From: a virus | Taxonomy: Duplodnaviria > Caudoviricetes | IMG/VR virus record: IMGVR_UViG_3300022555_000003 | Span: 178,081-242,080 of that record | Direction: 5' to 3' (one strand) | Length of the DNA stretch: 64,000 bases | Part shown: piece after piece, positions 7,319 to 35,908 of the stretch | How the letters are laid out: each line of letters opens with the position of its first letter | Numbering within the stretch: the first letter of the stretch is position 1 | Translations under genes and position numbers: made by a program | The notes under the pieces: generated by a model | Database searches by the model: none | Told to the model about the DNA's origin: nothing | Seen by the model: the letters and a program-made list of their open reading frames with translations, nothing else

Positions 7319-7327
7319 TACTTTCCT

Positions 7328-7804
7328 TTATCCAATATACTTTTCTAATTTATTGCCGTCTGCTTGTTTTTTATATCCTAATCGTTCATAAAATGATTTG
7401 GCTGTTGAAGTTAACACTATTTTCTTAACTCCTTTTATTTTAGCTTCTTTTTCTAACGCATTTATAACTTGTGATCCAGCGCCCCTTTCAATGGATCCAA
7501 CATTCATAATTTCCGCTTCAGTTGATTTTCGTGGGATCCACATTGATCCAGCTGCTACAATCTTATTATTTAAAATAACAAATGCTGTCCTAATGTTAGC
7601 TCGCTGTGATAAAGGTGCATTGATTTGTATTTCTAATACTGTACTAATATGACATAATGCAGCATATTCATGATTTTCTTCGCCGTTTTCTTCCAATTCA
7701 GCTATTCGTTCATCAACTTGTTTAATTGATTGACGTGCAATATTATCAGACAGATTAATGCCAGTTTGTACATTTTCTTTTAATATCATTTCTGTTATTT
7801 TCAT
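7328..7804 (-). CDS. GNAT-family acetyltransferase
   Basis: VGSIERGAGSQVI (motif A), SFYERLGY (motif B); starts MKITEM. Confidence 0.85.
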   Translation of the reverse strand: MKITEMILKENVQTGINLSDNIARQSIKQVDERIAELEENGEENHEYAALCHISTVLEIQINAPLSQRANIRTAFVILNNKIVAAGSMWIPRKSTEAEIMNVGSIERGAGSQVINALEKEAKIKGVKKIVLTSTAKSFYERLGYKKQADGNKLEKYIG

Positions 7805-14148: not shown

Positions 14149-14643
14149 TTATTTATCCAATTCTCCATATCCTTGTGCTTGCCCTTCATCACTGGTTGTA
14201 AAAATACTATTACTTCTTCTAGCTTCAATTCCAAGTAGTTTCAAATTCTTATCATAAGCAATTGTATTATCAATATCACTATCGACGGTCCGTCTTTTTT
14301 CAATACTAGCTGATTCAAAAATTACTCCAGATGGTCTTGTGCCACGAAATAATACTTTTTTTATTGTATCAAAAATATTAAGATAGTTACTAGCTTCTTT
14401 TTGTATTTTCTTTATTACATCTACTTCTTTCTTTATAACTTGTTTAACCTGAGATAATTCTTTCAAATAATGTCCTTTTGCAGTCTGATGAATGTTTTTA
14501 ACGGCATCGTTTGTTGTTTGTTTAATGTTATAATCAGAATCTTTAATCCAATAATTCAGTTTTTCCAGATGTGATTCGTCTTCCCACTTGTTTATTAAAA
14601 CAGTACGATGGCTCTTTGCTTCCATTAAGTCAATTATTTTCAT
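14149..14643 (-). pseudogene. putative ADP-ribosyltransferase paralog, C-terminally truncated
   Basis: Has LFRG, RRTVDS, LGIEARRSNSIFTTS..QAQGYG, then stops; lacks FSWS and HE motifs. Confidence 0.7.
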
Positions 14644-15488
14644 TTAGTGTATCCTAATTTTCTTCTAATTGTTTGAAATTCAAAAAAGTACTTTTCTAAT
14701 ATAGCAAAATATGCTCCATGTATTAGTACTTCATTTTCTGATTTTAAGGCGGCTGGAAAATTCTTATTAGTAACTCTAAATTTTTTCTGAAAGCTATCTA
14801 AATCTGGTTCTCTATTTAATAATTCTCTAGTATATTTAAGTACTGGAGATTCGGGGAATTTCAATGATATCCATTTTAAATTATCTACTATAGTACTTTT
14901 TTCTGTAAAACCTAATATTTCATATAGTTTAAATTTATAGTCAATCAAAGTAGATTTTAATTTCCAAACAAGATTATTATATTCTTTATCAGCCCTTTCA
15001 ATCTCGCTGTCAATTACATTTGTTATTTCTTTTGGATAATCTTTTACATAACTACCCATATGATCTAAAATCAAATCATTGTGTATTCTGCTCCAACTAA
15101 ATACTGCTGTATTTTTTGGAATGATGACATATGATATTTGTCCGTAGTCTGAAGAAGAATCCAAACTAGATGTGGTAAAAATACTATTACTTCTAAGAGC
15201 TTTAATACCAAGTAACGTCATCAAATTATCATATCTTAGAGTATCCGATTTGCTACTATCCATTGGACGTCTATTTTCAATACTTTCACCTTCAAAAATT
15301 ACTCCAGTTTTTTTAGTTCCTCTATATAATACTCTATGTGTTGCATCAAATACTTTAAGATATTTACTGCATTCTTTCTGTATTTTAATAGTAATGTCAG
15401 TATTTATTTGTGCGCCGTCTTCCCACTTGTTTATTAAAATTACACGGGTTGAATGTTTCTTTGCTTCCATTAAGTCAGTTATTTTCAT
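14640..15488 (-). CDS. putative ADP-ribosyltransferase-fold paralog
   Basis: LYRG / SNSIFTTS / YVIIP / FSWS / SENEVLIHG; starts MKITDLME. Confidence 0.6.
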   Translation of the reverse strand: MKITDLMEAKKHSTRVILINKWEDGAQINTDITIKIQKECSKYLKVFDATHRVLYRGTKKTGVIFEGESIENRRPMDSSKSDTLRYDNLMTLLGIKALRSNSIFTTSSLDSSSDYGQISYVIIPKNTAVFSWSRIHNDLILDHMGSYVKDYPKEITNVIDSEIERADKEYNNLVWKLKSTLIDYKFKLYEILGFTEKSTIVDNLKWISLKFPESPVLKYTRELLNREPDLDSFQKKFRVTNKNFPAALKSENEVLIHGAYFAILEKYFFEFQTIRRKLGYTK

Positions 15489-16474
15489 TTAAGTAATCCT
15501 AACTTAGTTCTGAGTGGTTGAAGGTGTACGAAGAAGTCCTCTTCAGCTACAGCAAAATATTCTCCGTGTATTAATACTTCATGCTTGGATCTGATTGCTG
15601 CTGAAAAATAAGAATCATAAACTCCATACTTTTTTTGAAATTCTTTAAGATTATATGTTGGATTTATTAGTTCTTCTGAATATTTAAGTATTGGAGATTT
15701 TGGTTTATTTTTAGAGATCCAACTAACTAACCCTTTGGCATCTTCGATAGTTTCTTGATACAACAAATCTCTCAATGAATTATTATATTCTGTCATTTCT
15801 TCAATTTTATTTTCGTCTTTTAGTTTCGATATAATAGCGTCACTTTTATCAAGCTCTTTTTTAATCACATCTTTTAATTTACTAGAATACCTAGGGCCTA
15901 ATAATGCTCTTCTATGTGTAGAATCTAACACCAAATCAGAATATATAAAGCTCCAACTAAACACTGCTGTATTCTTAGGTATAATTACATATACTTTGCT
16001 TCCATAATCACTTGCCTGATTTGAACTTCCTGTTGTAAATGTACTATTACAACGTAAGGCTTCAATACCAAGTAACTTCAATTTTTCATCATATTCTTTT
16101 GACAAAAGATTACTACTGTCCTTAGGATGACGATTTATTGGACTCGTTGCTTCAAATATAGATCCTCCGTTAGTAGTACCTCTGAATAAAAAATTGTTGA
16201 TTTGATCATATACTTTAATGTAATTACTACATTCTTTTTGTATTCTCTTAGCAATAGCAGTCTCTGAATTAATAATTGGTTTTATTTTGGATAACTCTTT
16301 CTCACAATCTTTTAGTAGTTTTTTAAACTTTGTCTTTTCTTTTGGATCTTTTTCTTGTTTAATAAGAGATGTGATATCGACGATATCTTTATTTACATCT
16401 AATCCATCTACCCATTTAGTCAGTAAAGTTTTTCGTTTACTAACAGATTCTAATAGTAAGTCATTTATTTTCAT
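15485..16474 (-). CDS. putative ADP-ribosyltransferase-fold paralog
   Basis: LFRG / NSTFTTG / FSWS / SKHEVLIHG; starts MKINDLLLE. Confidence 0.6.
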   Translation of the reverse strand: MKINDLLLESVSKRKTLLTKWVDGLDVNKDIVDITSLIKQEKDPKEKTKFKKLLKDCEKELSKIKPIINSETAIAKRIQKECSNYIKVYDQINNFLFRGTTNGGSIFEATSPINRHPKDSSNLLSKEYDEKLKLLGIEALRCNSTFTTGSSNQASDYGSKVYVIIPKNTAVFSWSFIYSDLVLDSTHRRALLGPRYSSKLKDVIKKELDKSDAIISKLKDENKIEEMTEYNNSLRDLLYQETIEDAKGLVSWISKNKPKSPILKYSEELINPTYNLKEFQKKYGVYDSYFSAAIRSKHEVLIHGEYFAVAEEDFFVHLQPLRTKLGLLK

Positions 16475-17454
16475 AATAATTTTTTAACCATTGGCCAAAA
16501 TAGATGATTAATGGCAATATATTTTCCGTGTATTAATACTTCGTTACGAGACTGTAATGCCGCTGGCATATCACTATTAGTGATCTGATATTTCTTTTGA
16601 AATTTATCTAAATTAATTGTAATTGTATATTCAATGAGATCATGAAGTATTGTCGAGTTTGGAAAGTTTTTCTCTATAAAATCTAAAGTGTAAAATCGTG
16701 TATCAACTTGTTTAAACTTAATAATATCTTTTAAAATTAGAATATATCTATACATGACTCTGTGTTTGTCGGGGAGATAGTAATCATCGTCATTTATCAG
16801 GTGTTGATATTTTGATAATTCTAGTCTAGATTTGTTAATTAACTCAATTGGTAAATCATACAAATCATCAAACGAATTACTTGTTAGTACTATATCGTCG
16901 GACGTCAATGAGCATGAAAAGTCTGCTGAATCTTCAGGAATAATTATATATGTATTCCCATATATTTGTACAGCCTGTTTCGAACTACTAGTAAAAATAC
17001 TATTCAATCGAAGCGCTTTAATACCTAATTGTGTTGCACATCCATCAAACAACTTACTCATTATAGCACTACTATCAAGTGGTCTTCTTTCTGACAGAGA
17101 TTCTGATTCAAATGCAGTTAAGTTTCCATTGATGCCACGATATAACCATCTTTGTTCTTGTTTAAAAATATTTACATACTTATTGCAACTAGATTTAACT
17201 ATCTGTTGAACATTATTTATAACATCCCTATAGTTAGTCATGTCATTAATTATTTTTTCTTCCTCATCAATGACATTCTCATAATATCCAATACTCTCTG
17301 TATCAATGGGTTCACTAGACTTAATTAAATCTATTTTATTTCTGAGGCGGTCAATACGCTCTATACAAGATGTATAAACAATAATATCAAAATTACCAGT
17401 CAATGAGACTTTCTTAGGAGCTCCATCTTCATTGATAATCTCTGAGAAACGCAT
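16471..17454 (-). CDS. putative ADP-ribosyltransferase-fold paralog
   Basis: LYRG / NSIFTSS / SRNEVLIHG; starts MRFSEI. Confidence 0.6.
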   Translation of the reverse strand: MRFSEIINEDGAPKKVSLTGNFDIIVYTSCIERIDRLRNKIDLIKSSEPIDTESIGYYENVIDEEEKIINDMTNYRDVINNVQQIVKSSCNKYVNIFKQEQRWLYRGINGNLTAFESESLSERRPLDSSAIMSKLFDGCATQLGIKALRLNSIFTSSSKQAVQIYGNTYIIIPEDSADFSCSLTSDDIVLTSNSFDDLYDLPIELINKSRLELSKYQHLINDDDYYLPDKHRVMYRYILILKDIIKFKQVDTRFYTLDFIEKNFPNSTILHDLIEYTITINLDKFQKKYQITNSDMPAALQSRNEVLIHGKYIAINHLFWPMVKKLL

Positions 17455-17457
17455 TAG

Positions 17458-17904
17458 TTAGGCCCTTGCTTTCTTAGTCATTGACCGCATTTTCCACGCC
17501 CATTTTTCGTGAGCAGCAATACGATCCTGTAAAAAGTTTTGTAGACCTAAATGATCACCAGCTTGAGCATAAGTTTCTTCTAATAGCTTAATCACAACAT
17601 GATTGTTTTCTAATAGCTCTTCAATCATTAATTCAGCTCTAGGAACTAGTAATTGTTCACTAATTTCAGTTAGTTCAGCAAAACGTGCTAAACTTCCTGG
17701 AGCATATATGTCAAGTGCTCTGATATGTTCAGCAATATCATCACATGATTCAAACACATCCTGATATAATTCACCTAGGAATGCATGATAAGAATGAAAA
17801 TGGGGACCTTCTAGGTTCCAATGGAAGTATTGAGCTTTTAGTTGGAATACATAAGATGTAGCTAATAAACGTTTGATCTTTTCTTCGAGATGTAGGATAG
17901 TCAT
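17458..17904 (-). CDS. dps: Dps-family ferritin-like protein
   Basis: HWNLEGPHFHSYHAFLGELY...DDIAEHIRAL...HEKWAWKMR; ATAAATA 5 nt before ATG. Confidence 0.92.
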   Translation of the reverse strand: MTILHLEEKIKRLLATSYVFQLKAQYFHWNLEGPHFHSYHAFLGELYQDVFESCDDIAEHIRALDIYAPGSLARFAELTEISEQLLVPRAELMIEELLENNHVVIKLLEETYAQAGDHLGLQNFLQDRIAAHEKWAWKMRSMTKKARA

Positions 17905-17931
17905 ATAACTATTTATCTACATGTTAAAATA

Positions 17932-18706
17932 TCATTCACCAAATAATTTTATTTTAATATCTGGCCACACACTAATGTGAATACCATAATATTCGCCATG
18001 TATTAATATTTCATTGCCTGATTTTAATGCACTAACGAAGTTTGTTGAATCAATTTGATATTTTGCTTGAAACTTATTAATATTTGCTGGAACGTCTTTG
18101 GCATCATCTAATATAATATCATCGTGAGTTTTACTCCAACTAAAATCAGCGGAGTCTTTTGGTATAATTATATATCTTGTTCTAGTTGTATTCTGACCAA
18201 AATTTAAATAGGCAGAGATTTGGCTAGCATCTCCGCTAGTAAAAATACTATTTTTTCGTTGAGCTTTAACACCCAATTTATCTAACTGCCTGTCAAACAA
18301 AATAGACATATAATTATCACTATCAACAGGAATTCTGTCAATGAGACTCCTGTCTTGATATAATGCTCCACGATTTTTTCTGGCACTATATAAACATTCG
18401 TCGGTTTGTTTAAACACACTTAAATATTTTTTACACTCAGCGTTAATTTGCGGAATAAAATTGTCAAATTGTGCTAAGTAATCAGTAAATTGCTTCATCA
18501 ACATTGTATATTTTACTGTTTCTTCATCAATATAATCCTGTGTTGATTTATATTCGGGGTTACTTTTATCAATCTTAATAAGATATATTTTTAATTCTTT
18601 TATATTGTGATCAATTTGAAGAATTTTTTTTATTTAAACTAGCTTGTATTTTGGGAACTAAAATTTGTTGATGTTTAGTTTCAGTTAAAAATTCATGTGA
18701 TCTCAT
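17932..18706 (-). pseudogene. putative ADP-ribosyltransferase paralog with +1 frameshift at an A8 run
   Basis: MRSHEFLTE... from 18706 stops after the A8 run (T8 at 18624-18631); removing one A joins it to the open frame of ORF 17932-18504. Confidence 0.7.
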
Positions 18707-19701
18707 TTTAATAATTTACCTTTGAGTGCTTCCCAAACTGAACTATGCAAGCCATAAAACTCACCATGTATTAGTATTTCATTTCTGGTACTAAGTGCTT
18801 TATCAAAATTAGTTGTATCAATTTTAAATATGTCTATAAACTTCTTTATATCAACAGTTGGTTTATATTTAAGAAGTTTTTTGGATATTTTCAGTATTGG
18901 CGAATTAGGAAATATTTGTTTAATACGTCTTAAATTAAAATCCATGTTTGTATAATTTTGCTTGTCAAGATTATATAATATCTTGTGATATTCATTACTG
19001 GTCCAGTAATGATCATCATCGTCATTATTATCAATATCATCTGTTACTTTTCCCAACTCATCGCTTATTATTTTTTTAAATGGACTATCTACATAAGTTG
19101 GAATTATTGATGAGTTGCTTAGTATTAGATCGTCGTTGGATTCACTCCAGCTAAAATCAGCTGTACTTTTAGGTATAATAACATACTTTGTTTGGCCATA
19201 GCCACCAGCATGTGATGAGTCAGACGAAGTAAAAATACTATTTCCTCTGCGTGCTTTAACACCCATTTCTTGTAATATTTTGTCAAATGATATAGTAATT
19301 CCTTGGTCGCTGTCTCTTACTTGTCTATTTTCAACACTACGTCCAACATATAATCCACCATGCATTCTACGGCCACTAAACAAACACTTATCTGTACGTT
19401 TGTAAGCGTCTAGATAAGTTTTACAGTCGTTACGAATTTGAGGAATGAATGGTGTAAATAATTTTAAATAGTCTTGGCATCTCTTTTTAATTCTTGCATA
19501 CTTAGCTTCTGCAGCATCTAATTCAATTTTAACTTGTTCAGCTGATGAAGCATTAAAATCTTTACTGGTGTTGTTTACAAGATTATTATATCTTTTCTTT
19601 AAGTAATAAACAGTATGTCGGTTTAATGTAACATTATTTATTAACTCAGTATTTATAGGTGTTACTAAAACTTCCATATCTATTACTTCATTGATTTTCA
19701 T
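18703..19701 (-). CDS. putative ADP-ribosyltransferase-fold paralog (FSG variant)
   Basis: LFSGRR / NSIFTSS / FSWS / TRNEILIHG; starts MKINEV. Confidence 0.6.
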   Translation of the reverse strand: MKINEVIDMEVLVTPINTELINNVTLNRHTVYYLKKRYNNLVNNTSKDFNASSAEQVKIELDAAEAKYARIKKRCQDYLKLFTPFIPQIRNDCKTYLDAYKRTDKCLFSGRRMHGGLYVGRSVENRQVRDSDQGITISFDKILQEMGVKARRGNSIFTSSDSSHAGGYGQTKYVIIPKSTADFSWSESNDDLILSNSSIIPTYVDSPFKKIISDELGKVTDDIDNNDDDDHYWTSNEYHKILYNLDKQNYTNMDFNLRRIKQIFPNSPILKISKKLLKYKPTVDIKKFIDIFKIDTTNFDKALSTRNEILIHGEFYGLHSSVWEALKGKLLK

Positions 19702-20672
19702 TGGAATAACTTCCCTTTAACTATGTCCCATATACTGTTATGTATCCCATAATATTTACCATTTATTAGTATTTCGTGATTTGTGTTTAGTACCGCTTCC
19801 ATTGAGGTTGTATTAATCTTGAACTTTTCTTGAAACTTGTTGAGATCAATTTTTGGTTTATATTTAAGTAATTGATCTGCTATACTATTAACTGGAGAGT
19901 CAGGATATTTATTTTTGACATAAGCTAAATCAGTTTTAATGTTATAAAAATTTTGTCTATATAACCATTCTAAGATTTGTAAGTATTTGTAATGTTGTCC
20001 AATATCAGAATCACGTTCAATTCTTTCTTTTTCATCTTTAAGAATCTTTTCCATATTATCTGGCAATGGTCTGTAAGTTAATTTCAATGAATAACTACTT
20101 AGTACTAGATCATCTCTTGTTTCGCTCCAACTAAAGTTAATGTCATTGAATGGAATTATTATGTATCTATCAGCGCCATATTCTGCAGCATGACATTCAC
20201 TTGACGTTGTAAAAATACTATTTCCTCTACGTGCTTTAACACCAAGTTTTTTTAATAAACTATCAAATTTGGTTGTAACAGAGGCCATACTGTCTTTTGG
20301 TCTTCGTTTTTCTAAGCTTTCATCCTGATACAATGCTCCATGAAATCTACGTCCACTGTATAATACTTGGCCTGTTCTGTTAAATAATTCTAGATAATGA
20401 CTACAGTTATTTTGAATTATTGGTCCGAATTTTGAAAATTCTTTCATTGAATCAGCAAATCTTTTTTGAGTTTTTATAACATTATCTTTAGCTTTTTGCA
20501 ACTCTTTTTTAAATTTAGCAGCTTGTTCTGGAGTTGTACTTTCCAACTTGTTATGTTCAATACTTTTTACTTTGTTAATGCCTACTTGCAATGTAGCTTG
20601 TAACTCAAGCTGAACACTATGTATTAAAACTTTTTCATTTGCGCTTTCAACAATAAATTCGTGTGACCGCAT
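19698..20672 (-). CDS. putative ADP-ribosyltransferase-fold paralog (YSG variant)
   Basis: LYSGRR / NSIFTTS / FSWS / TNHEILING; starts MRSHEFIVE. Confidence 0.6.
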   Translation of the reverse strand: MRSHEFIVESANEKVLIHSVQLELQATLQVGINKVKSIEHNKLESTTPEQAAKFKKELQKAKDNVIKTQKRFADSMKEFSKFGPIIQNNCSHYLELFNRTGQVLYSGRRFHGALYQDESLEKRRPKDSMASVTTKFDSLLKKLGVKARRGNSIFTTSSECHAAEYGADRYIIIPFNDINFSWSETRDDLVLSSYSLKLTYRPLPDNMEKILKDEKERIERDSDIGQHYKYLQILEWLYRQNFYNIKTDLAYVKNKYPDSPVNSIADQLLKYKPKIDLNKFQEKFKINTTSMEAVLNTNHEILINGKYYGIHNSIWDIVKGKLFQ

Positions 20673-21721
20673 TACATATCTCCTTTAAACAAATCAAATA
20701 AATCAATTTGAACCGCAATGTATTTTCCATGTATTAGTACTTCGTGCTTTTTAATTATAGCAGTTTGTAAGTTGGTGTCCATTGGTTTATATTTTTTCTT
20801 AAATTTATTCAAATTGACTCGGCTATATTCAATACTGTTTAATGTAAGTAGTAATGATTCAGGAAAATAATAATTTAGAAATTTTCGACCAGTGAAAGAA
20901 ATAATTCTGTTTCCAGTAGTTCGAACATCTAGTAGATATTTATAATAACATTGTAGAATTGATAATTTTTCATTATATTCATTATCGTTTGATTTTGATA
21001 TTAACTCTTTCTCTTCTTCAATTTTAGTCTGTATTTCATCTAATTCATTGTCTAAGGCGGCAATCACTTCGGGTGAAAAAGACATTAGTCCATTAAATGA
21101 ATCACTATGTAATATTAGATCCTTTCCAGCCTCTGACCAGGAATAATCAGCTGTATCTTCAGGAAAAATAACATAAATGTTATTACCATATGATTTAGCT
21201 TGGCTTATACTACTTGATGTAAAAATACTGTTAGAACGCAGAGCTTTAATACCTAATTCTTGTAAACAACTATCATATAATATAGTAGAATCTATATTGC
21301 TATCTTTTGGAGGTCGATTATTAGGACTGTCGGATTCAAATGCAGGAAATGAATTTGACTGACCACGATATAACATTCCACTATGCTTGAAGATTCCAAT
21401 ATATTCACTACATCTTTTTTTAATTATTGATATCAATAATTTTATGTTTTCTTTTAAATTTTCTTCTTTGTATTGATTTTTTTGAAGTTCAGCAATTCTA
21501 TCAGTTAATACTTTATATTCTTTTTTAATTTTAAAAGATTCGTCAGATGTAATTTCTGGATTAAACCATATTTTTTCATGACATTCTGCTTGTTTCTTTT
21601 TTAAATCAATAATTACATAAGTAACCAATGGATCAACAGAAATGTCTACCAATGGATCAACAGAAATGTCTACCAATGGAGTTTTAACTGGTTTTATGTT
21701 CTCTACTTCAAATAGTCTCAT
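20672..21721 (-). CDS. putative ADP-ribosyltransferase-fold paralog
   Basis: Start moved to MRLFEVE (TAA-T-ATG); LYRG / NSIFTSS / YSWS / KKHEVLIHG. Confidence 0.6.
   Translation of the reverse strand: MRLFEVENIKPVKTPLVDISVDPLVDISVDPLVTYVIIDLKKKQAECHEKIWFNPEITSDESFKIKKEYKVLTDRIAELQKNQYKEENLKENIKLLISIIKKRCSEYIGIFKHSGMLYRGQSNSFPAFESDSPNNRPPKDSNIDSTILYDSCLQELGIKALRSNSIFTSSSISQAKSYGNNIYVIFPEDTADYSWSEAGKDLILHSDSFNGLMSFSPEVIAALDNELDEIQTKIEEEKELISKSNDNEYNEKLSILQCYYKYLLDVRTTGNRIISFTGRKFLNYYFPESLLLTLNSIEYSRVNLNKFKKKYKPMDTNLQTAIIKKHEVLIHGKYIAVQIDLFDLFKGDM
21624..21680. repeat. 24-nt in-frame tandem repeat (PLVDISVD x2 plus partial)
   Basis: ACCAATGGATCAACAGAAATGTCT x2 + ACCAATGGA. Confidence 0.9.
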
Positions 21722-21722
21722 A

Positions 21723-22736
21723 TTAGTTTTTCTTTTCTGATATAGTAAGTAACGGTTCAAAATTTGAATTAGGTACAAATTCGTGTTTACGTATAACTGT
21801 CTTAGCTAAAAGCTCAAGTTCATCTTTAAATTTGTTCCATACTAGCACGAATGGAGCATTAACATCAGTTTTTAAATCTTTTAATACTGCTTGAAAGCCT
21901 GGATCTTTCTTTTTCAATTTTGGTGCATATTTTCGATAAGTTTCAATGAATAATCTGGCAAGTTCATTGATTGTTATTGGTTTCTTATTACGTAAATCAT
22001 TTACTCTATCTAAGAAGTGTGTTGAAAAATGAACATCCATTCCAGCTAGCTCCCAAAATTGATTTAAATACTTCTCCAGAGAATGCAATTCATCATTAGT
22101 AATTTCTTCCGTTATTTTCTTTTTGGTACCTGACGGGGCAACTGCCATAGCGTCCTTTAAGGTTTTGAAATAACTCATCCCATTAACTTTTAACTTTGAT
22201 ATTTGAACAGCTCTTTTTGGATCACCAGCTGCTGCTGAAATATAAAATGCTTTTTTATCATCTTCTGCTGCTGCTTTTCTCAATGCTGAAGCACTTCCAA
22301 GTCTGGGACTTTGTACGTGAGTAATTGATTTAAATGTATACTTACGTCCTAACTTGTCTGGAACTCCATTATAATCTTTAAGAAGTTTACCACTCCACCC
22401 ATTCCAATCTTCAATATCAGTTACATATATTAAATCAGTTACTTCAGGATGATGTTGATTAATATAAAAAGCTAATGTAATAACTAATACTTCAGGAATG
22501 ATGTGTCCTTTAAGGGTTGGATCAAATGCTTCCATCCAAGCTTTTTTAACTTCGTAAGTAAGTGGATTATCTTTATTATGAGTAGTAGGACTAGTACCAA
22601 CAAACCATAAATTATTGTCAGCTGAATGTTTAACAACTTCAAATAATTTAACATGTCCCATATGTACTCCGTTAAATCGACCAAAGCACATAGCGGCTGT
22701 TGTATTACTTGCTTCAAATAATTGTTTGAGGTTCAT
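21723..22736 (-). CDS. HIGH-family (cytidylyltransferase-like) nucleotidyltransferase fused to an unknown C-terminal domain
   Basis: CFGRFNGVHMGH (HxGH), NPLTYEVK, SASALR; second domain after ITEE (HFLDRVND). Confidence 0.75.
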   Translation of the reverse strand: MNLKQLFEASNTTAAMCFGRFNGVHMGHVKLFEVVKHSADNNLWFVGTSPTTHNKDNPLTYEVKKAWMEAFDPTLKGHIIPEVLVITLAFYINQHHPEVTDLIYVTDIEDWNGWSGKLLKDYNGVPDKLGRKYTFKSITHVQSPRLGSASALRKAAAEDDKKAFYISAAAGDPKRAVQISKLKVNGMSYFKTLKDAMAVAPSGTKKKITEEITNDELHSLEKYLNQFWELAGMDVHFSTHFLDRVNDLRNKKPITINELARLFIETYRKYAPKLKKKDPGFQAVLKDLKTDVNAPFVLVWNKFKDELELLAKTVIRKHEFVPNSNFEPLLTISEKKN

Positions 22737-23849
22737 TTAATGTTTTCCTAAGTTTGCTGCTGAGAATTTAAATCTATCAACTAACTTTACTGGGCCTGTA
22801 TTGGTATGTACAATGAATCCTTCTTGACCAGTTTCATCACCTATTCCAGCATGTAAATCAGTAGTTGATTTATCAAGTTCATTTATTATCTTAAATTTTG
22901 CAACTGTAAGTAAACTAAACACAGTCATTACAGCACTAAATGCACTTTGATTTTTTTTAATATGTTCTAATATTCTAGGAGTTGCTGGTCCAGATTGAGT
23001 TTCTAACCATTTAATAAACTGTTGATCTAAATTAATTAATGATTTACTATATATAACATGTTGATTAACGAATGTTTTCAATAATGTCAAAAATGATTTA
23101 ATCTTTGCTTCAGCTAAATCAGACTGATTAAATAATTGATCAATTGATGGACCAAACTTAGCAACTAATTGTGTAGCTTTTTTAAGTTCATCAGGCTCAG
23201 TAATAGTTACATTAGGAGCTAATTGGTCTGACATTATTAATAAGCCATTTACTTGATTTCTTACAACACTTTGTAAATCAGTATCAGTAACGTGATGTCC
23301 TGAAGTTGCTCCAGCATCTAACTTACTATGCACTATAATTCCAACTTTGCTACGTCCTATTAACTTACCGAGTTCAGTATCAACGTTAACTGAATAAGTA
23401 ACTGTATTTGGAGTGAAGACAAACTTATCGCCTTGTTTTGGAGGTTGAGCTGTATACATTAAGTCTCCAAAAAGATATCCCGAAAAGCTTGTCGGAATAC
23501 TCTTTTCAAAAATTGGCCACAGTGAAGAATATAAAGCAAGTAAATGTTGATTGGTGCCACCTTTTCTAGCTGATAATATTTGTTCAAGTTCTTGTATACT
23601 ATGTGGAGGAGTACTGATCATATACTTATCACCCATAGCAAAACCAACTTTATCTCGTCCCCAGAATATAGCAGGCTTTCCGTCTGGCTTTAAACTTACT
23701 GTTTGTGGTTGTTTAATAGCTTGTCGTAATGCATTGATAGAGTCTGTTATCGCTGCTGATCCAATGAATGCAGCGTCTTCAACATGTTCAATTCGAGCTT
23801 TTTTAAGATTATATGTCTCTTCTTCTGTAATAAATTCTGATGATCGCAT
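22737..23849 (-). CDS. DUF6267-like protein, covalent nucleotidyltransferase (ligase)-like motifs
   Basis: KPDG (motif I), LFGDLMY (III), EGFIV (IV), VKLVD (V); starts MRSSEFITEE; ATAAATA-N5-ATG. Confidence 0.6.
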   Translation of the reverse strand: MRSSEFITEEETYNLKKARIEHVEDAAFIGSAAITDSINALRQAIKQPQTVSLKPDGKPAIFWGRDKVGFAMGDKYMISTPPHSIQELEQILSARKGGTNQHLLALYSSLWPIFEKSIPTSFSGYLFGDLMYTAQPPKQGDKFVFTPNTVTYSVNVDTELGKLIGRSKVGIIVHSKLDAGATSGHHVTDTDLQSVVRNQVNGLLIMSDQLAPNVTITEPDELKKATQLVAKFGPSIDQLFNQSDLAEAKIKSFLTLLKTFVNQHVIYSKSLINLDQQFIKWLETQSGPATPRILEHIKKNQSAFSAVMTVFSLLTVAKFKIINELDKSTTDLHAGIGDETGQEGFIVHTNTGPVKLVDRFKFSAANLGKH

Positions 23850-23875
23850 ATCAGTATTTATCTGAATTAATAATA

Positions 23876-24607
23876 TTATATTAATCGTTCAGCAAGCATA
23901 TCTTCGTATATTTCTTTTCTAATAGCAATATATGTTCCGTGTACTAGTATTTCATGGCCAGATTTTAATGCAGCATCCAGATCAGTCTGGTCAAGTTTAA
24001 ATACTTGTTGAAATGCTTTCAGATCCAAAATATTTAAATTTGAACTAGGTTGTAATACTATATCCCGATGTGTTTGAGACCAACTAAAATCATCAGAATT
24101 AAACGGAAAGATAACATATACTCTACCATATGAGATAGCTTGGCTTACACTAGTTGTAGTAAAAATACTATTTGATCTCAACGCTTTAATGCCTAGTTTG
24201 GTTGCAAATTCATCATATTCTTCTTGAATTACCATGTAACTGTCTTTTGGTTCTCTATCAAAAGGTGAATAAGCTTCGAATGCTGCTGGCTTCTTACTTC
24301 TAATTCCACGATATAATACTCTATCATTCTTTTTAAATGCATCATAAAATTTACTACATTCTGATTTAATTCTATTAGATATTTGTTCGTAAGTTTTTAT
24401 TATGTCAGTATTTGAATTAATCTTTTCTAATTCATCATTGGCGCGTGCAAGCTTCTCTTGAAATAATTTTTTTCGTGATTCACTAGTAGTCTGATTTATA
24501 ATTCTAACAAAAAATTGTATGTTAAGTTCGATATTTTCTTTAGCAATTGGATCGTAATCTGCTAGTAAAGTAACTACATTTGATTTTGATATTTCGTTTA
24601 GTCTCAT
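23876..24607 (-). CDS. putative ADP-ribosyltransferase-fold paralog (short type)
   Basis: LYRG / SNSIFTTT / FSWS / SGHEILVHG; starts MRLNEI. Confidence 0.6.
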   Translation of the reverse strand: MRLNEISKSNVVTLLADYDPIAKENIELNIQFFVRIINQTTSESRKKLFQEKLARANDELEKINSNTDIIKTYEQISNRIKSECSKFYDAFKKNDRVLYRGIRSKKPAAFEAYSPFDREPKDSYMVIQEEYDEFATKLGIKALRSNSIFTTTSVSQAISYGRVYVIFPFNSDDFSWSQTHRDIVLQPSSNLNILDLKAFQQVFKLDQTDLDAALKSGHEILVHGTYIAIRKEIYEDMLAERLI

Positions 24608-25335
24608 AATAGTTTCTCAATGATCATATCTTCATATAAATCATGCCTAACTGCAATATACTTACCATGTATTAGTACTTCATGTTCAGAAAATAATGCC
24701 TCAGGTAAATTAGTCTGATCAAGTTTATATGTCTGTTGAAACTCTTGTACGTCTTTAAAATGTAATGGCTTCTCAGCGAATAATACAAGATCCTTTTTTG
24801 CATGAGACCAGCTAAAATCAGCTGAACTCTTAGGAAATACGACGTATAGATCGCCATAAATTCTAGCTTGATCTTCGTCTGACGATGTGAAAATACTATT
24901 TGATCTTTGTGCTATAATACCAAGTTGCTCAGCAAATCTATCAAATTTTAATGTATTAACTAATCCGCTGTCCTTAGGTCGTCTGTCAGTTGGACTATTC
25001 GATTCGAATGCTGCTGGTTTGTTATGTCTGATGCCTCTATATAATACAGCATTACTTCGTTTGAATATACTATAAAATTTACTACATTCATTTTTAATCT
25101 TATCAGCTAATTCTTTTAATATATCATTTGACTTATTATATTCTTCAATCTTTCTTAATTGTTCTTTGGCGTGGTCTAACTCAACCTGAAATATTGCTTT
25201 ACGTTCAGGAGTAACATAATCTCTATTTAATTGATCAGTATAATACTGAATGTCTAAATTTATGCTGTTAAGTTTAGTAGCGTTATACTTATCAATTAAT
25301 GTCGTTATGTTAGTAGATATTTCATTCAATCTCAT
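24604..25335 (-). CDS. putative ADP-ribosyltransferase-fold paralog (short type)
   Basis: LYRG / SNSIFTSS / FSWS / SEHEVLIHG; starts MRLNEI. Confidence 0.6.
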   Translation of the reverse strand: MRLNEISTNITTLIDKYNATKLNSINLDIQYYTDQLNRDYVTPERKAIFQVELDHAKEQLRKIEEYNKSNDILKELADKIKNECSKFYSIFKRSNAVLYRGIRHNKPAAFESNSPTDRRPKDSGLVNTLKFDRFAEQLGIIAQRSNSIFTSSDEDQARIYGDLYVVFPKSSADFSWSHAKKDLVLFAEKPLHFKDVQEFQQTYKLDQTNLPEALFSEHEVLIHGKYIAVRHDLYEDMIIEKLL

Positions 25336-26060
25336 AATAGTTTCTCTTTTATCATATCTTCATATACTTGATATTTAATAGCAATATATCGTCCATGTAT
25401 TAATACTTCATGTTCTGATTTTAATGCAGCATCCAGATCTGTTTTCTTTAATTTGTATATCTCTTGGAATGATTTTAAGTCCTTAAATCCAGCTTTATGT
25501 TCAAGATATAATATAATTTCTCGTCGAGATTCTGACCAGCTAAAATCAGCTGTATCTTTTGGGTATATGACAAATAGAATGCCATAATATCTAGCGTGAC
25601 ATTCACTCGAAATAGTGAAAATACTATTTGATCTAAGTGCTTCAATTCCGAGTTCTTGAGCAAACTTATCAAATAATATTGTATTATTAACATCACTGTC
25701 CTTAGGTTCTCTATTTACTGGGCTCATTGATTCAAATGCTGGCGGATGTTTATATTTGTATCCTCTAAACAATACTTTATCACATTTCTTAAAGGCATTA
25801 TAAAAGTCTCTACATTCAACTTTAATTTTAGTAGCTAATTTTTCCAATGAACCTTCCGGAAGTGATTCCAGATATGTTAATTCTTCTAGTGCATCTTCTA
25901 AATATTGTTGAGTTATTTTTTTATGCTCTTCTGTTTGTGGCTGCCGCATAAGTTTTTTATAATATGATATTTGCGAATTAATTGAATTTCTCCTAATAGG
26001 ATCAAAATTCGCCGGTAGTAACAGTATTTTGTTTGAATCAATCATTTCATATAGACGCAT
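25332..26060 (-). CDS. putative ADP-ribosyltransferase-fold paralog (short type)
   Basis: LFRG / SNSIFTIS / FSWS / SEHEVLIHG; starts MRLYEM. Confidence 0.6.
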   Translation of the reverse strand: MRLYEMIDSNKILLLPANFDPIRRNSINSQISYYKKLMRQPQTEEHKKITQQYLEDALEELTYLESLPEGSLEKLATKIKVECRDFYNAFKKCDKVLFRGYKYKHPPAFESMSPVNREPKDSDVNNTILFDKFAQELGIEALRSNSIFTISSECHARYYGILFVIYPKDTADFSWSESRREIILYLEHKAGFKDLKSFQEIYKLKKTDLDAALKSEHEVLIHGRYIAIKYQVYEDMIKEKLL

Positions 26061-26078
26061 AGTAATATTTATCTAAGT

Positions 26079-26810
26079 TTATAGTAATTTTTTACTTACC
26101 ATTTCGTTGTATATGTCGTCTATAATAGCAATATATCTACCATGAATTAATATTTCGTGACCTGATAATAAAGCTTTATCTAAACTAAGTTGATCAAGCA
26201 TAAATTTTTGTTGAAATAATTGGATTGATGTGCAACTATCTAACATGTAAGGAACTAATACTATATCAGAATATTTCATTGACCACGAAAAATCAGCTGT
26301 ATCTTTTGGAAAGATATTATATAAATAATATCCATACTCTTTAGCTTGAGATTTTTGAGTAGTAGCGAAGATACTGTTTGACCTGAGTGCTCTAATTCCA
26401 AGCTGTTCAGCAAATGTATCAAATTTTATTGTGGCTATTTCATTACTATCCTTTGGCCGACGGCCTTCTATACTAGTTGATACAAATACTGGTGGTCTCT
26501 CATTTCTAATTCCTCTAAATAATACCTTGTTTACTTTCTTACAAGCATTATAAAATTTACCACATTCATTTTTAACTTTATCGGCTATTTTTTTAATCTT
26601 TTCATCTATTTCTTTGGCATCAATATCATTTAGAATATCTAGATTGTAGTCTATAGATTGTTGTAATGACTTTCTATCTTCTGGATCAGTTGAATCATTT
26701 TGTAATTTAATCAGATTAGCAATATTCTTCTCAGCACTCTCTTTTTCATCTAATCCTATTTCAGATAGTAACGAAATTATATTTTCATCAGACATTTCAT
26801 ATAGACGCAT
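26079..26810 (-). CDS. putative ADP-ribosyltransferase-fold paralog (short type)
   Basis: LFRG / SNSIFATT / FSWS / SGHEILIHG; starts MRLYEM. Confidence 0.6.
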   Translation of the reverse strand: MRLYEMSDENIISLLSEIGLDEKESAEKNIANLIKLQNDSTDPEDRKSLQQSIDYNLDILNDIDAKEIDEKIKKIADKVKNECGKFYNACKKVNKVLFRGIRNERPPVFVSTSIEGRRPKDSNEIATIKFDTFAEQLGIRALRSNSIFATTQKSQAKEYGYYLYNIFPKDTADFSWSMKYSDIVLVPYMLDSCTSIQLFQQKFMLDQLSLDKALLSGHEILIHGRYIAIIDDIYNEMVSKKLL

Positions 26811-26818
26811 AGTAATAT

Positions 26819-27582
26819 TTATATAAGCCTATTATAATACCTGATCTAACAGCAATATATGTGCCTTTAATCCAAATTTCGTGTCCAGATAATAATGCTT
26901 CTTTTAAATTAGTATCTGAATGTAATCCTAAAACCTTAACCATATTATTAATATTAAAATTAGTACGTAGTTTAAACTCTCCAAATTGCTTTTTAATTGG
27001 ATGATTCAGGTAATCGACTCATGTATATTTCTAGAAGATTACGTTGTTCAAGCACATTATTAATAATAGACAAATACATTCTATTAATAGTTCCATGGTA
27101 ATTATCTTCAACTATTGAAGGATTACTTGTTGGATACTTATCTATATAATCTTTTAAAGCTTTAGTGAATTGACTAGTATAAGAGTATGCTCCATATTTA
27201 ATTACTGAATCAAAATCAAAAACTAAGTCATCATCATTTTCACACCAAGTATAATGAAAACCATTTTTTGGATATATTTGAAATACTTCACCAAAATACT
27301 TTGCTAATTTATGTGAAGTAGTTGCATATATAGAATTTAGACGCCTAGCTTCAACACCAATACTATCAAGACCCCAATCTATTACTCTATATATTTCTGC
27401 ATTAGATGTCTTTGGAATACGATCAGTACTACTACTATCTATATAATAGTTATTCTCATCTCTGGAATGACCACGTGTTCCATGTAGTAATGGATGTTCA
27501 GGAACTTCTTTCAATACCTTAAGATAATCAGAACACTCAGTAGCTATTTTTTCTTCTAATGTGATATTTCAAATAAGCGCAT
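26819..27582 (-). pseudogene. divergent ADP-ribosyltransferase paralog broken by frameshifts
   Basis: ATAAATA-N5-ATG MRLFEISH* at 27582; body (LNSIYATT, YTWC) in another frame; C-terminal LLSGHEIWIKG back in the start frame. Confidence 0.65.
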
Positions 27583-28690: not shown

Positions 28691-30970
28691 TTAATATTCA
28701 GTAACAAGTTCTTCAACTTGAATTTTACTGATATTGGATTGGACAGTGATCTTTAACTCTCCGTCCCAATCCAATAGTAACTTTGACTCATCAGCGACAT
28801 TATCAAATAAGATCTTCTTGCTCAATGGAAGTTTGATTAACTTACTAACTTTGCGTGCTAATGGTCTCGCACCCATTTTATCATCAACACCAGTTTCAAT
28901 AATGTAATCAATTAACTTTTCACTAGCAACAACCTGGAACTTCTTTGCTGATAGTAAATTATTGATATCGTTGATCAAGCTAACAACAATCTTACGATAA
29001 CTCAAATTATCAAGCTTATTGAATGTGCAAATTGCACTTAGTCTATTTCTAAACTCTGGCTTGAAAAAGTCTTTAATTGCACTCTTATTGTTTTTCTTAG
29101 AACTTTGATCAAACCCAATTAAATTTTGTTCCATCTCTACAGATCCAAGATTGCTTGTTAAAACAATAATACTTTCTCTGCAATTTGCTTGCTTACCAAC
29201 TCCATTGATATAACCTTCATCCATCATTTGTAGTAGGATTAATGTAACATCAGGATGAGCCTTTTCAATCTCATCAAATAAAATAATGCTATTTGGATGA
29301 ATTTCAATTTCATTAACAAGCTGGCCGCCACCCATTGTGCTATCATCAAAACCTACATACCCAGGAGGTGCTCCAATTAGTTTTGATACTGAATGCTTTT
29401 CTTGATATTCACTACAATCAACTCTGATCAAGTGCATATTCAATTGTTTGCTCAACTCTTTACAAATCAATGTCTTGCCAACACCAGTTGGTCCAAGTAG
29501 CAAGAAGCTGCCAATTGGCTTATTAGGATCTTTCAACCCAGCCTTGCTGATAAGTAATTCATCAGTGATGATATCAACTGCTTCATCTTGACCATATACT
29601 ACTTTCTTTACTTCAAAGCTTAGATCTTTGATTTTTTCAGTTTGAACTTCATCTAGCTGTTCAAGAGGAATCTTAGTTGCTTTACTAATTTCTAGCTGGA
29701 TATCAGACTTATTAACTATCCAATCTGTTGCATCTAAAATTTTAAATTTTGCACAAGCACTATCAATTAGATCAATTGCCTTATCAGGTAACTTTAACTC
29801 TTTCTGATAGCGAATACTCAAATCAACTGCTTCATCAATGGCTTCGTCTGTAATAAATCCACCATGAAATGTTTCAAAGTAACTCTTAATTCCACGTAAG
29901 ATTTGTTTTGCTTTGTTTGGAGTTGGCTCAGTTAACATTAACTTACGGAACCTTCGCATCAAAGCTTTATCTTTTTCAAATGACTTTTTGTACTCTTCCC
30001 AAGTTGTACTTGCAATAACTTTAATTCTGCCCTTTGAGATAGCAGGTTTGAGCATATTTGCTAAATCTGGACCACCAGAAGATCCTGATCCTGCACCAGA
30101 CATTTGATGGGCTTCATCAATGAATAAAATGCATTTTCCGGTTACCGAAAGAGCATCAATGATCTCTACAATCTTTTCTTCAAATTCGCCTCTGTACTTG
30201 GTACCAGCTAACAAGGTACCAATATCAAGATTCCAAACTGTCCAATCTTTTAAGTAATTTGGTACAAATCCTTTAGCAATATTTAATGCAAGACCTTCAA
30301 TCAGACATGTTTTACCAATACCACTATCACCAATCAATAGTACATTGGACTTATTTTTCTTTGCTAAAATTTGAGTGATATCAGTGAGCTCTTCTTCGCG
30401 ACCAATAACAGGATCAATTTTACCATCGTTTGCAAGTGCGTTCAAATTGATACAATGCTTTTCTAGAAGTTCAAGAGCTTGATTGGTGTCCATCTTTCCT
30501 TTTTCAGCAGTTACTTTGTGTTCTTGATAATTATCTTCGTAAAATTTGATAAATTTTTCAGAATCTTCATTGGTAGAACCTAAATGCTTCTTCAGTATAT
30601 ATGCTGCATAGCTGGTTGTTTCTTGCGTAATGCTAACATAGATATCAATCAATCTAATATGATCACGACCTTGAAATACAACCAAATTAGCAGAACGTTC
30701 AATCACTCTTGATAACGTTGCTGTTTTAACTGGATTTGTTTGAGTCTGAGTATTCTGAGTAATAAGTTTTTGATCAGATACATACTTGTTGATTTCTGAA
30801 TGCATCTGATTAGTATCAACACCATACTTAGATAATATATCTTTGAAATTCTTGTAGCATGTCAATGAATACAATAAATGTTCTAATGTCAAATATTGGT
30901 GATTCAAAGACTTGGCATATTCAACAGTCTTCTGAAGTACTAAACTAAGTTCTGGATTTTCTCTTAACAA
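28691..30970 (-). CDS. clpA: ClpA-like Hsp100 ATPase
   Basis: Two AAA+ modules (GDSGIGKT/FIDEAH; GPTGVGKT/LFDEIEKAHPD), IGF ClpP-docking loop (NLIGFDQ), GARPL; 759 aa, no ClpB middle domain. Confidence 0.85.
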   Translation of the reverse strand: MLRENPELSLVLQKTVEYAKSLNHQYLTLEHLLYSLTCYKNFKDILSKYGVDTNQMHSEINKYVSDQKLITQNTQTQTNPVKTATLSRVIERSANLVVFQGRDHIRLIDIYVSITQETTSYAAYILKKHLGSTNEDSEKFIKFYEDNYQEHKVTAEKGKMDTNQALELLEKHCINLNALANDGKIDPVIGREEELTDITQILAKKNKSNVLLIGDSGIGKTCLIEGLALNIAKGFVPNYLKDWTVWNLDIGTLLAGTKYRGEFEEKIVEIIDALSVTGKCILFIDEAHQMSGAGSGSSGGPDLANMLKPAISKGRIKVIASTTWEEYKKSFEKDKALMRRFRKLMLTEPTPNKAKQILRGIKSYFETFHGGFITDEAIDEAVDLSIRYQKELKLPDKAIDLIDSACAKFKILDATDWIVNKSDIQLEISKATKIPLEQLDEVQTEKIKDLSFEVKKVVYGQDEAVDIITDELLISKAGLKDPNKPIGSFLLLGPTGVGKTLICKELSKQLNMHLIRVDCSEYQEKHSVSKLIGAPPGYVGFDDSTMGGGQLVNEIEIHPNSIILFDEIEKAHPDVTLILLQMMDEGYINGVGKQANCRESIIVLTSNLGSVEMEQNLIGFDQSSKKNNKSAIKDFFKPEFRNRLSAICTFNKLDNLSYRKIVVSLINDINNLLSAKKFQVVASEKLIDYIIETGVDDKMGARPLARKVSKLIKLPLSKKILFDNVADESKLLLDWDGELKITVQSNISKIQVEELVTEY

Positions 30971-33513: not shown

Positions 33514-33946
33514 TTTGTTCCTCTGGAGTTAATTCACTACCTGATAATATTTCAAAACATCTAAATTGATCTTTTGTACCAACATTTATTGCATGTTCAA
33601 TGACTGTTGGTTGAGCCAACGCAGCTTTACTTAATGTGGTTACTTCTCCAGTTACTTCATCTGTATGTGAGGAAAACTGTCTACGAACTGCATCAATATT
33701 AAGTTGTGTTTGAGAAATTGTCTTGTTGACTTGCTGACGTAAGATATTTTGTTTACTTATGTCATTATTTATTTGATCTGTGATTGCTTGCTGTTGCTTA
33801 ATTATTATTTCTTGTTTGGCAAGTCTATCAGCATTTTCAACTAACTTCTTTTGTGTATCTTTATAATAAAAATATCCGCCAAAAACTATAGTAGAAATGA
33901 TAATACTAACAATGCCGATGAGTATCCATTTAGGTGTGAGTAACAT
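33452..33946 (-). CDS. putative i-spanin
   Basis: N-terminal TM helix, then coiled coil; paired with o-spanin. Confidence 0.7.
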   Translation of the reverse strand: MLLTPKWILIGIVSIIISTIVFGGYFYYKDTQKKLVENADRLAKQEIIIKQQQAITDQINNDISKQNILRQQVNKTISQTQLNIDAVRRQFSSHTDEVTGEVTTLSKAALAQPTVIEHAINVGTKDQFRCFEILSGSELTPEEQNGQQTNTICPDTFFKYSITK

Positions 33947-33957
33947 AACAGTATTAT

Positions 33958-34503
33958 TTATACTAATCCAGCAAGCTTCTGTAAATCTTTACTACCTTGA
34001 TCTTCAACTTTTGGAGTAGTAATATTTAATCCAGCTGCTGTTTTTAGATCCTTTATTGGCTTTTCATATAGTCTACGATATTTTAGAGGACTAAGTGGTA
34101 CTAACTTATTAAAATTTTCTTGAGTAAAAGGAACATAATTCTTTTCTTTCATAAACTTAAAAGTCCATTTAGAAAAATTAATACCTGTTGCTCCTTTAAG
34201 ATCTTTTAGTATATGTGATATTTGATCAAATAATGTTGTTCGTCTTTGAAATTCTATAAAAACTAAAAAATTATCAATTCCTGAATCATCTTGTATAAAG
34301 TCTGTGTCATTGACATAGCTATAACCACTCTTAACAAATTCTACTAAATCTTTAGATGCTTGTTTATCACGCACTCCAATACTTACAACACAGTTCTTAT
34401 CATCTCGACCTGCACTACTTCGATACATATCTACTTCAAATTTTGGCTTGATAATATCGACTAAATCGTCTAATTCAAATCCTTCAAATAAGTTGTTTGC
34501 CAT
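33958..34503 (-). CDS. hypothetical protein
   Basis: Clean coupled ORF. Confidence 0.75.
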   Translation of the reverse strand: MANNLFEGFELDDLVDIIKPKFEVDMYRSSAGRDDKNCVVSIGVRDKQASKDLVEFVKSGYSYVNDTDFIQDDSGIDNFLVFIEFQRRTTLFDQISHILKDLKGATGINFSKWTFKFMKEKNYVPFTQENFNKLVPLSPLKYRRLYEKPIKDLKTAAGLNITTPKVEDQGSKDLQKLAGLV

Positions 34504-35045: not shown

Positions 35046-35181
35046 AGTGTTTGTTCTCTTCTATAGTATTTATCTAATCACTCGTACAAAATATTTATGC
35101 ATTTTTTCTTAAAATTTAAAGTAAGAATACACGAAAACAAAAACAAATAAATACTAGTGACACAAGGAGTCTAAAAACTAC

Positions 35182-35901: not shown

Positions 35902-35908
35902 TCACAAG

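Follow-up and report, generated by a model that had tools for sequence, protein, structure and literature searches.

Bacteriophage T4 Alt has an R-S-E-type ADP-ribosyltransferase (ART)-fold domain, is carried in the phage head and is ejected with the DNA, and its short N-terminal propeptide, which ends in I-T-E, is removed by gp21 with cleavage after Glu (PMC9026906). T4 also has IPI, IPII and IPIII, variable and unrelated proteins with a common N-terminal targeting and cleavage sequence of ~10 residues, which act against host defences after injection (PMC3012670; PMC9026906). For T4 internal proteins, the 10-residue capsid targeting sequence suffices for head entry (PMC9026906; PMC3012670). 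Here we describe a diversified family of proteins of ~240–350 amino acids (aa), which we propose to be packaged ARTs as well and which is encoded by 13 gene copies on the minus strand of a stretch of DNA from a giant freshwater phage, at positions 14149–27582. This stretch, referred to below as the window, is the terminal 64 kb of the 242,080-bp IMG/VR virus record IMGVR_UViG_3300022555_000003, with window position 1 at record position 178,081. The record has 33% G+C, ~327 genes and a completeness estimate of 74%. Positions are those of the window unless the record is named.

Each protein of the family is made up of a leader, a helical N-terminal region that folds into a hairpin in the predicted model, and a conserved core with a site for an insert. 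In the copy that we modelled (24604–25335), the leader spans residues 1–9, the helical region 19–94 and the ART-like core 95–243. We put the probability that these proteins are packaged ARTs, injected with the phage DNA to modify the host, at roughly 0.55; NAD+ use, transferase activity, targets, leader cleavage, packaging and injection are what we infer for this phage. In the mechanism that we propose, the leader most likely works like the propeptide of T4 Alt and the internal proteins: it would target the protein to the head during assembly and would then be removed by a prohead protease, with cleavage after Glu. The proteins would probably travel within the capsid and be delivered, along with the DNA, to the cell, where they would ADP-ribosylate macromolecules of the host with NAD+ as substrate, for instance the transcription and translation machinery, proteins of host defence, DNA or RNA. 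Each paralog would owe a target of its own to the variable helical region and to an insert of either 10 or 85–99 aa just upstream of the catalytic strand. Such a system would be built on a different scale from Alt, which is a single-copy protein of 682 aa, against 17 copies of 240–350 aa in this record.

Evidence for packaging comes from a relative of this phage. A tblastn search of named phages returned only Agrobacterium phage Atu_ph07 (two database records), with seven matching places. Atu_ph07 has a tandem array of hypothetical genes, AUZ94865–94877, and a hidden Markov model (HMM) of the family places AUZ94865–94875 within it (E values 4e-49 to 3e-5). These 11 proteins correspond to gp53–gp63, as their computed masses agree to 0.01 kDa with those in Suppl. 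Table S5 of PMC6102473. All 11 are present in that table, which lists proteins found in Atu_ph07 virions by electrospray ionization tandem mass spectrometry (ESI-MS/MS), with 3–31 unique peptides and 12–46% coverage; for comparison, the major capsid protein has 10 peptides and 41% coverage (PMC6102473). Thus, where the preliminary description of this locus had called the proteins virion-packaged, detection in a virion preparation stands for the relatives gp53–gp63, and for the phage described here packaging is proposed by analogy. The Atu_ph07 genes also lie in tandem with overlapping stop and start codons, and their products have a conserved eight-residue leader. It reads M[RK]WxQLxE, unlike the M[RK]xxE-hydrophobic leader found here, and the host and habitat differ as well. 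More precisely, the Atu_ph07 N-termini follow M[RK]W[EHDQN][QD]L[TNI]E, with gp63 starting MRLFQLLE. The record and Atu_ph07 have a collinear gene block with 28–54% identity, and Atu_ph07 has genes for a T4-type gp21 protease and gp23 capsid protein. Because the Atu_ph07 copies form clades of their own, the expansion in that phage is independent. One of them, gp53, has the family domain fused to a zeta/P-loop kinase. As a separate observation, gp64 and gp65, which adjoin the array (Atu_ph07 33939–52325), are not family members and are without the MRWxQLxE leader, yet they are in the virion table.

The leader itself is not confined to the family. Among the family proteins it takes the form M-[RK]-[ILF]-x-[ED]-hydrophobic, and all 13 copies in the window fit M-[RK]-x-x-[ED]-hydrophobic when the upstream fragments of two broken copies are counted. 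It is found on 24 of the ~327 genes of the record, compared with a frequency of 0.3% for the same pattern after internal Met residues (binomial P ~6e-25, calculated over paralogs that are not independent). About 12 of the carriers are proteins outside the family. They include a Nudix hydrolase (5094–5873), a CCA-adding-type nucleotidyltransferase with an HD domain (5870–7318) and a GNAT protein (7328–7804), and, in a second cluster of family genes elsewhere in the record, a GS...DxD nucleotidyltransferase-like protein and an HExxH protein. Altogether, leader-bearing genes outside the family are located at 5094–7804 and 22737–23849 in the window and at 18470–24954, 66769–67212 and 126988–130491 in the record. 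Leaders in the window such as MKITE[LM] and MRLNEI may be compared with the N-terminus of T4 Alt, MELITELFDE, and by sequence the leader resembles the Alt propeptide and the capsid targeting system. The likeness to the T4 internal proteins is that of one leader common to many genes, 24 here; the differences are that the cargo here consists mostly of enzymes, that the leader sequence is another one, and that no gp21-type protease was found in the incomplete record.

Several observations weigh against packaging in this phage. We searched the record for a gp21-type protease, gp23, an HK97-type capsid protein and a T4-type portal and detected none of them; this absence of head genes is most simply explained by the incompleteness of the record (~74%). 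Two related viral contigs with family copies also had no gp21 match. The T4-like late promoter TATAAATA occurs 14 times, compared with 17 occurrences expected by chance, and is therefore not enriched, and scans for sigma-70 promoters and terminators stayed at chance level. The Atu_ph07 virions were purified with polyethylene glycol (PEG) only, and the table also has a few replication proteins at low coverage (PMC6102473), so some of its entries may be contaminants. The lack of a detectable prohead protease, capsid gene or late-promoter signal, together with an Atu_ph07 preparation that had not been through a caesium chloride (CsCl) gradient, would suit an alternative in which the proteins are never packaged in this phage. 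They would then be enzymes that act in the cytoplasm early in infection to take over the host, as T4 ModA and ModB do, and the conserved N-terminus would have another role, for example in initiating translation or in stabilizing the N-terminus, or would be a trace left by recombination. We regard this as improbable, given that the leader is common to unrelated enzymes and resembles the T4 Alt propeptide with its [LI]-x-E cleavage context, that 11 of 11 Atu_ph07 homologs were detected by several peptides each, and that the record is both partial and related to Atu_ph07.

To characterize the conserved domain, we modelled one of the short copies with AlphaFold2 from a 118-sequence alignment, and obtained predicted local distance difference test (pLDDT) scores of 94.3 for the full-length protein and 97.5 for residues 73–243 alone. 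The full-length model proved unsuitable for searching with VIA-align, as matches to the helical hairpin swamped the list, and the core was re-modelled alone. In an exhaustive VIA-align search of the core model against 48,161 representative PDB chains, only 115 chains reached Z ≥ 2, and the top 22 were all or almost all members of the ART superfamily. The best match was BC2332 of Bacillus cereus (PDB 2AUA; Z 6.5 over 128 residues, root-mean-square deviation 3.9), and the next was Arr (Z 5.6). Further matches were to a PE-like toxin, diphtheria toxin, DarT, cholix toxin, exotoxin A, an ADP-ribose (ADPR) complex, AvrPphF ORF2, PARP16, an Rhs toxin, an anti-CRISPR that we take to be the ART AcrIF11, CopC/OspC3, PARP1, tankyrase and PARP13. 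The first folds other than ARTs, cyclic nucleotide monophosphate (cNMP)-binding domains, appeared at rank 23 with Z 3.0. A second alignment, of the candidates returned by Foldseek, placed 2AUA (Z 7.1) ahead of three Arr entries (Z 4.4–5.6), and after Arr came only PARPs, DarT, Tpt1, CopC/OspC3 and PltA. A shape search of the Atlas gave ART-PolyVal and the Tse2 ART directly behind the family's own clusters, and by language-model features the nearest named family was DUF2441 (0.81–0.86), which belongs to the Pfam ART clan (PMC7955679). Together, these comparisons make it likely, to a degree that we would call high, that the conserved domain has an ART fold.

How the domain relates to the individual matches differs from case to case. 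BC2332, of the DUF2441 family, is the best structural match, with Z 6.5–7.1 over 127–128 residues; its sequence identity to the family is 9%, and DUF2441 has no known function. Arr, DarT, Tpt1/KptA, the diphtheria-type toxins and the PARPs have in common with the family a minimal ART core (Z 3–5.6) in which, judged from aligned ranges, the beta-1 and catalytic-strand positions coincide. They have H-Y-[EDQ] or H-H-h motifs, where the family has mostly R...[TS]S...E, and no sequence similarity to it. ART-PolyVal is a phage ART domain predicted to be delivered to the host and is the nearest named Atlas cluster (template modelling (TM) scores 0.43/0.51); it occurs as domains within giant multidomain proteins, unlike the small separate genes found here.

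The conserved residues of the family appear to fall at positions that fit this fold. The predicted core runs from the [YF]-R-G strand through a strand and a helix, the I-F-T-[TS]-S strand and another helix, two strands, the insert and two helices to the E219 strand, an order that fits a reading of the R-S-E type. The key residues of the modelled copy are R100, R118, R144, N146, S147, F149-T-S-S, D182 and E219. R100, in the [YF]-R-G motif of the first core strand, aligns approximately with Arr H19, and E219, the first residue of strand 219–223, aligns approximately with PARP1 E988, ~15 residues before 1003, both as judged from aligned ranges only. Between them N146-S147-I-F-T-[TS]-S is conserved, in which F-T-T-S resembles the [hydrophobic]-S-T-S of the R-S-E (cholera-toxin-like) clade by motif, not by residue-level superposition. 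The positions of R100, F-T-T/S-S and E219 appear to be those of the ART triad. Across 118 diverse family members R144, N146, S147 and P168 are invariant, R118, S123 and D182 are each present in 116, and E219 and C84 are each present in 114. Position 100 is R in 106 members, S in nine and H in two. His is found there in two copies of the second cluster (WHGT and YHGS) and in one broken copy of the window (26811–27582; LLHGT), and an exchange between R and H would be expected for the beta-1 position of an ART.

Other results count against the ART reading, and some of them leave room for a different chemistry. Foldseek against the PDB gave nothing significant with either the full-length or the domain model, the AlphaFold DB Swiss-Prot set gave only weak OspC and PARP16 rows, and the VIA-align Z-scores, at most 7.1, are 'middling' by the tool's own scale; the case for the fold rests on the coherence of the hit list. 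By sequence, Pfam had no ART match for eight copies or for the 118 members, PDB sequence profiles gave only chance matches to the helical N-terminus and no ART, and the HMMs of DUF2441 (PF10386) and ART-PolyVal (PF18760) had no match in the genome at E ≤ 10. Comparison of the family profile with T4 ModA, ModB and Alt by hhalign returned probabilities of 1.1%, 2.3% and 0.2%, i.e. no relation. The triad mapping is arithmetic on aligned ranges and not a residue-level superposition. A subclade of three copies in the window (starting at 17932, 18703 and 19698) has Ser in place of R100. Finally, the E-x-E or Q-x-E before the catalytic Glu that is typical of R-S-E transferases is not conserved among the 118 members, and the family in this respect differs from T4 Alt as well: the position two residues ahead of E219 holds G in 60 members, R in 15, E in 14, K in 10, N in six and D in three.

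Viewed against these results, most of what the preliminary description had said of the domain holds. The ART fold is supported by the VIA-align list, at modest scores (best Z 6.5–7.1); of the comparison with ART folds by AlphaFold and Foldseek that it had suggested, VIA-align of the AlphaFold model gave ARTs but Foldseek against the PDB was not significant. The residues of its R-S/T-E triad are conserved, and R100 and E219 map, within the approximation given above, onto Arr H19 and PARP1 E988. Its motifs were quoted correctly, and the S-x-[HN]-E loop that it had singled out is unusual indeed, with Gly the commonest residue two before the Glu and Glu in only 14 of 118. Its term cholera-toxin-like agrees with the motifs but not with the ranking of folds, in which DUF2441, Arr and H-Y-E-type ARTs come closest and not the cholera-toxin-like group; as a label it is therefore drawn from motifs.

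That ranking bears on the question of substrate. Tpt1 is an RNA 2'-phosphotransferase, Arr is a small-molecule ART, and DarT acts on DNA. With Arr, DarT and Tpt1 nearer than the protein-targeting C2, C3 and cholera group, and with no conserved E or Q two before the Glu, the proteins could be ART-fold enzymes that are not protein ADP-ribosyltransferases, and could instead be NAD+ glycohydrolases or act on nucleic acids (DarT/Tpt1-like, RNA repair) or on small molecules or immune nucleotides (Arr-like). The additional conserved residues R118, R144 and N146 could bind phosphate, AAA_33/zeta-type P-loop kinases are fused to the family domain in the second cluster, in Atu_ph07 gp53 and in metagenomic proteins, and the neighbours and leader carriers have an RNA-repair-like flavour, comprising the CCA-adding-type nucleotidyltransferase, a T4 Rnl1-like ligase, a DUF6267 protein with a ligase motif and the Nudix hydrolase. 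We nevertheless consider such chemistry unlikely. A set of 17 diverged copies, hypervariable in their N-termini and inserts, is easier to reconcile with many macromolecular targets than with a single housekeeping repair reaction, and the differences in structural Z between ART clades are too small to rank them. In addition, the strand E-[VI]-L-I-x-G and the motif [YF]-R-G bring to mind those of protein-targeting R-S-E ARTs, a likeness rather than a test.

A second alternative does away with catalysis altogether, making the proteins internal head proteins for DNA condensation, core or scaffold formation or ejection, built on a degenerate ART-like scaffold. It would accommodate the place of the homologs among the better-covered proteins of the Atu_ph07 virion preparation, the scaffold-like helical hairpin at the N-terminus, the three window copies without R100, the decay of three of the 13 copies and the lack of a sequence link to active ARTs. 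Against it, E219, R144, N146, S147, R118, S123 and D182 are kept in 97–100% of the 118 members, and such polar conservation, apparently clustered around the ART site, is unexpected for a purely structural protein. The distribution of sequence change argues in the same direction. Since the paralogs are only 30–56% identical and synonymous sites would be saturated, we compared identity by region in place of the ratio of nonsynonymous to synonymous substitution rates (dN/dS), and found 45–56% between copies in the core, 15–26% in the N-terminal region and 13–24% in the insert. The core is thus two to three times as well conserved as the flanking regions, and we hold a non-catalytic role to be quite improbable, preferring the reading of the family as active, packaged ARTs.

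The layout of the array agrees with the preliminary description in its count of 13 paralogs, as both the open reading frame (ORF) listing with translations and the alignment give 10 intact, one truncated and two frameshift-broken copies, and in its statements that all copies begin with a capsid-targeting-like motif and that short and long insert types exist. The insert lies between the ...D-L-V-L strand and the two helices that precede the last conserved strand, and measures 10 aa in the four copies of 242–243 aa and 85–99 aa in six long copies. The array is tandem in that the 13 copies follow one another on the minus strand, most adjacent copies having an ATGA overlap of stop and start, but it is not purely so, as three unrelated genes break it up. 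From the lower coordinate, it begins with the truncated copy (14149–14643; 164 aa), in which the leader and the N-terminal helices are present and the core is cut short by a stop after ...GYG. Next are an intact copy of 282 aa with an N-terminal region of only 35 aa and an insert of 88 aa (14640–15488) and two intact long copies, of 329 aa with a 92-aa insert (15485–16474) and of 327 aa with a 91-aa insert (16471–17454). The first interrupting gene (17458–17904, minus strand) encodes a Dps/ferritin-like protein of 148 aa (Pfam Ferritin, E value 3.5e-18) that NCBIfam Dps models match below their cut-offs.

The Ser-100 copies follow. The first (17932–18706) is of the short-insert type and frameshifted: a leader fragment, MRSHEFLTE... 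(18611–18706), stops past a run of eight A, and the core resumes in a different frame as a 190-aa ORF (17932–18504). This eight-A run may mark a fixed pseudogene, or slippage may occur there, by which a fraction of transcripts or translation products regains the frame. The other two are intact long copies of 332 aa (18703–19701; LFSGRR) and 324 aa (19698–20672; LYSGRR). The intact long copy at 20672–21721, of 349 aa counted from ATG (MRLFEVEN...) and with a 99-aa insert, has a direct repeat of PLVDISVD (two copies; 21624–21677) in its N-terminal region. This repeat is also where contigs break in all independent assemblies. Two more interrupting genes come next on the minus strand. The first (21723–22736) encodes an adenylyl/cytidylyltransferase-like protein of 337 aa that starts MNLKQLFE (Pfam CTP_transf_like, E value 5.7e-8) and has a weak likeness to nicotinamide mononucleotide (NMN) adenylyltransferase, with NCBIfam NMNAT models far below their cut-offs. 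The second (22737–23849) encodes the DUF6267 protein, of 370 aa (Pfam DUF6267, E value 1.6e-33), with a KPDG ligase-like motif and the leader MRSSEFITEE.

The remaining part of the array holds the four intact short copies, of 243 aa (23876–24607), 243 aa (24604–25335, the copy modelled), 242 aa (25332–26060) and 243 aa (26079–26810), and ends with the second broken copy (26811–27582). In the latter, the leader MRLFEISH is followed by TAG and there are at least two frame changes; the core, without the N-terminal helices, is a 173-aa ORF in another frame (26993–27514), and a C-terminal piece (...SGHEIWIKGTYIAV...) lies in a third. Lake and freshwater contigs from four studies contain the whole stretch with zero differences, the frameshift sites included, some of the sequencing runs possibly being the source of the record itself. 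Because the contigs of four studies are identical, the broken copies are not errors of one assembly, and they are fixed in the sampled population.

A profile built from the 13 copies and run against the whole record, in which copies score E values of 1e-52 to 1e-96, located four further copies at record positions 123703–127845 and brought the genome-wide number to 17. In this second cluster one of the four copies is fused to an N-terminal P-loop kinase, giving a protein of 492 aa. Two pentapeptide-repeat proteins are encoded ~1 kb upstream of the cluster (record 122017–122695), and pentapeptide repeats are fused to the family domain in other metagenomic proteins. In a tree, the window copies are distributed over four subclades, and proteins from other metagenomes group with each of them. 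The subfamilies therefore predate this phage and have been maintained, rather than having arisen in a recent burst of duplication.

Beyond this record the family is large. Profile searches gave 4,610 clusters at 50% identity with E ≤ 1e-3 and 426 with E ≤ 1e-30, and PHROG 11975, of unknown function, matched eight of eight copies scanned (E values 2e-32 to 3e-18). BFVD contains multi-copy sets from Atu_ph07, Achromobacter phage Motura, another phage proteome (A0A248S... accessions) and uncultured marine and Caudovirales phages, and clusters of the AlphaFold DB with the same fold include uncharacterised proteins. The family domain occurs fused to P-loop kinases (AAA_33/zeta), pentapeptide repeats and GNAT domains, and tandem arrangements of two to five family domains are seen in some proteins. 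When the copies were scanned with NCBIfam and PADLOC there was no relevant match, the region matched no named phage by megablast, and a pattern scan of bacterial genomes gave no relative. All homologs seen are annotated as hypothetical, and there is no Pfam model for the family. A literature search found no paper naming these proteins, and the main texts of two comparative studies of jumbo-phage ARTs do not name AUZ94865–75. Among the literature found, then, a family with this predicted ART-like fold is not previously described, and on the strength of the model it is a putative variation on T4 Alt, in the form of a large diversified array, whose catalytic loop is non-canonical.

Further genes of the window deserve mention, all on the minus strand. 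At 49559–50005 a protein of 148 aa matches Pfam Acb1, a 2H phosphodiesterase directed against the cyclic-oligonucleotide-based anti-phage signalling system (anti-CBASS), with an E value of 5.8e-22, and the phage therefore has at least one recognisable counter-defence gene. Close to it (50025–50468) a protein of 147 aa starts MKAFEISTTYYHGS, with a leader-like N-terminus followed by a Y-H-G-S that is reminiscent of H-Y-E-type ARTs; it had no match in Pfam, NCBIfam or PADLOC. A full-length ClpA/ClpB-type double AAA+ chaperone of 759 aa is encoded at 28691–30970, and the family B DNA polymerase at 1393–4282 is encoded by two neighbouring genes, for 550 and 403 aa, a split also seen in Atu_ph07 (gp276/gp277).

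On a broader and more tentative view, which we offer with considerable doubt, the leader might be a portable tag for capsid entry on ~25 enzymes, comprising the 17 ART-like proteins and the Nudix hydrolase, CCA-adding-type nucleotidyltransferase, GNAT protein, ligase-like protein and others. The ART-like set would then form a combinatorial collection of injected effectors, each ADP-ribosylating a different host defence component or nucleic acid, within a ready-made counter-defence and RNA-repair kit that arrives as infection begins and is conserved across a lineage of giant phages.

If the proteins are active, the family would add a large unannotated branch, of thousands of sequence clusters, to the ADP-ribosyltransferase superfamily, and the strategy of T4 Alt would be scaled up in giant phages to arrays of 11–17 diversified copies. 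A common N-terminal tag would also predict which proteins of these phages are packaged, and may provide a handle for loading foreign proteins into phage heads. As both Atu_ph07 and the plant pathogen that it infects, Agrobacterium tumefaciens C58, are amenable to laboratory culture, the proposal that arrays of ARTs are packaged and injected is directly testable.

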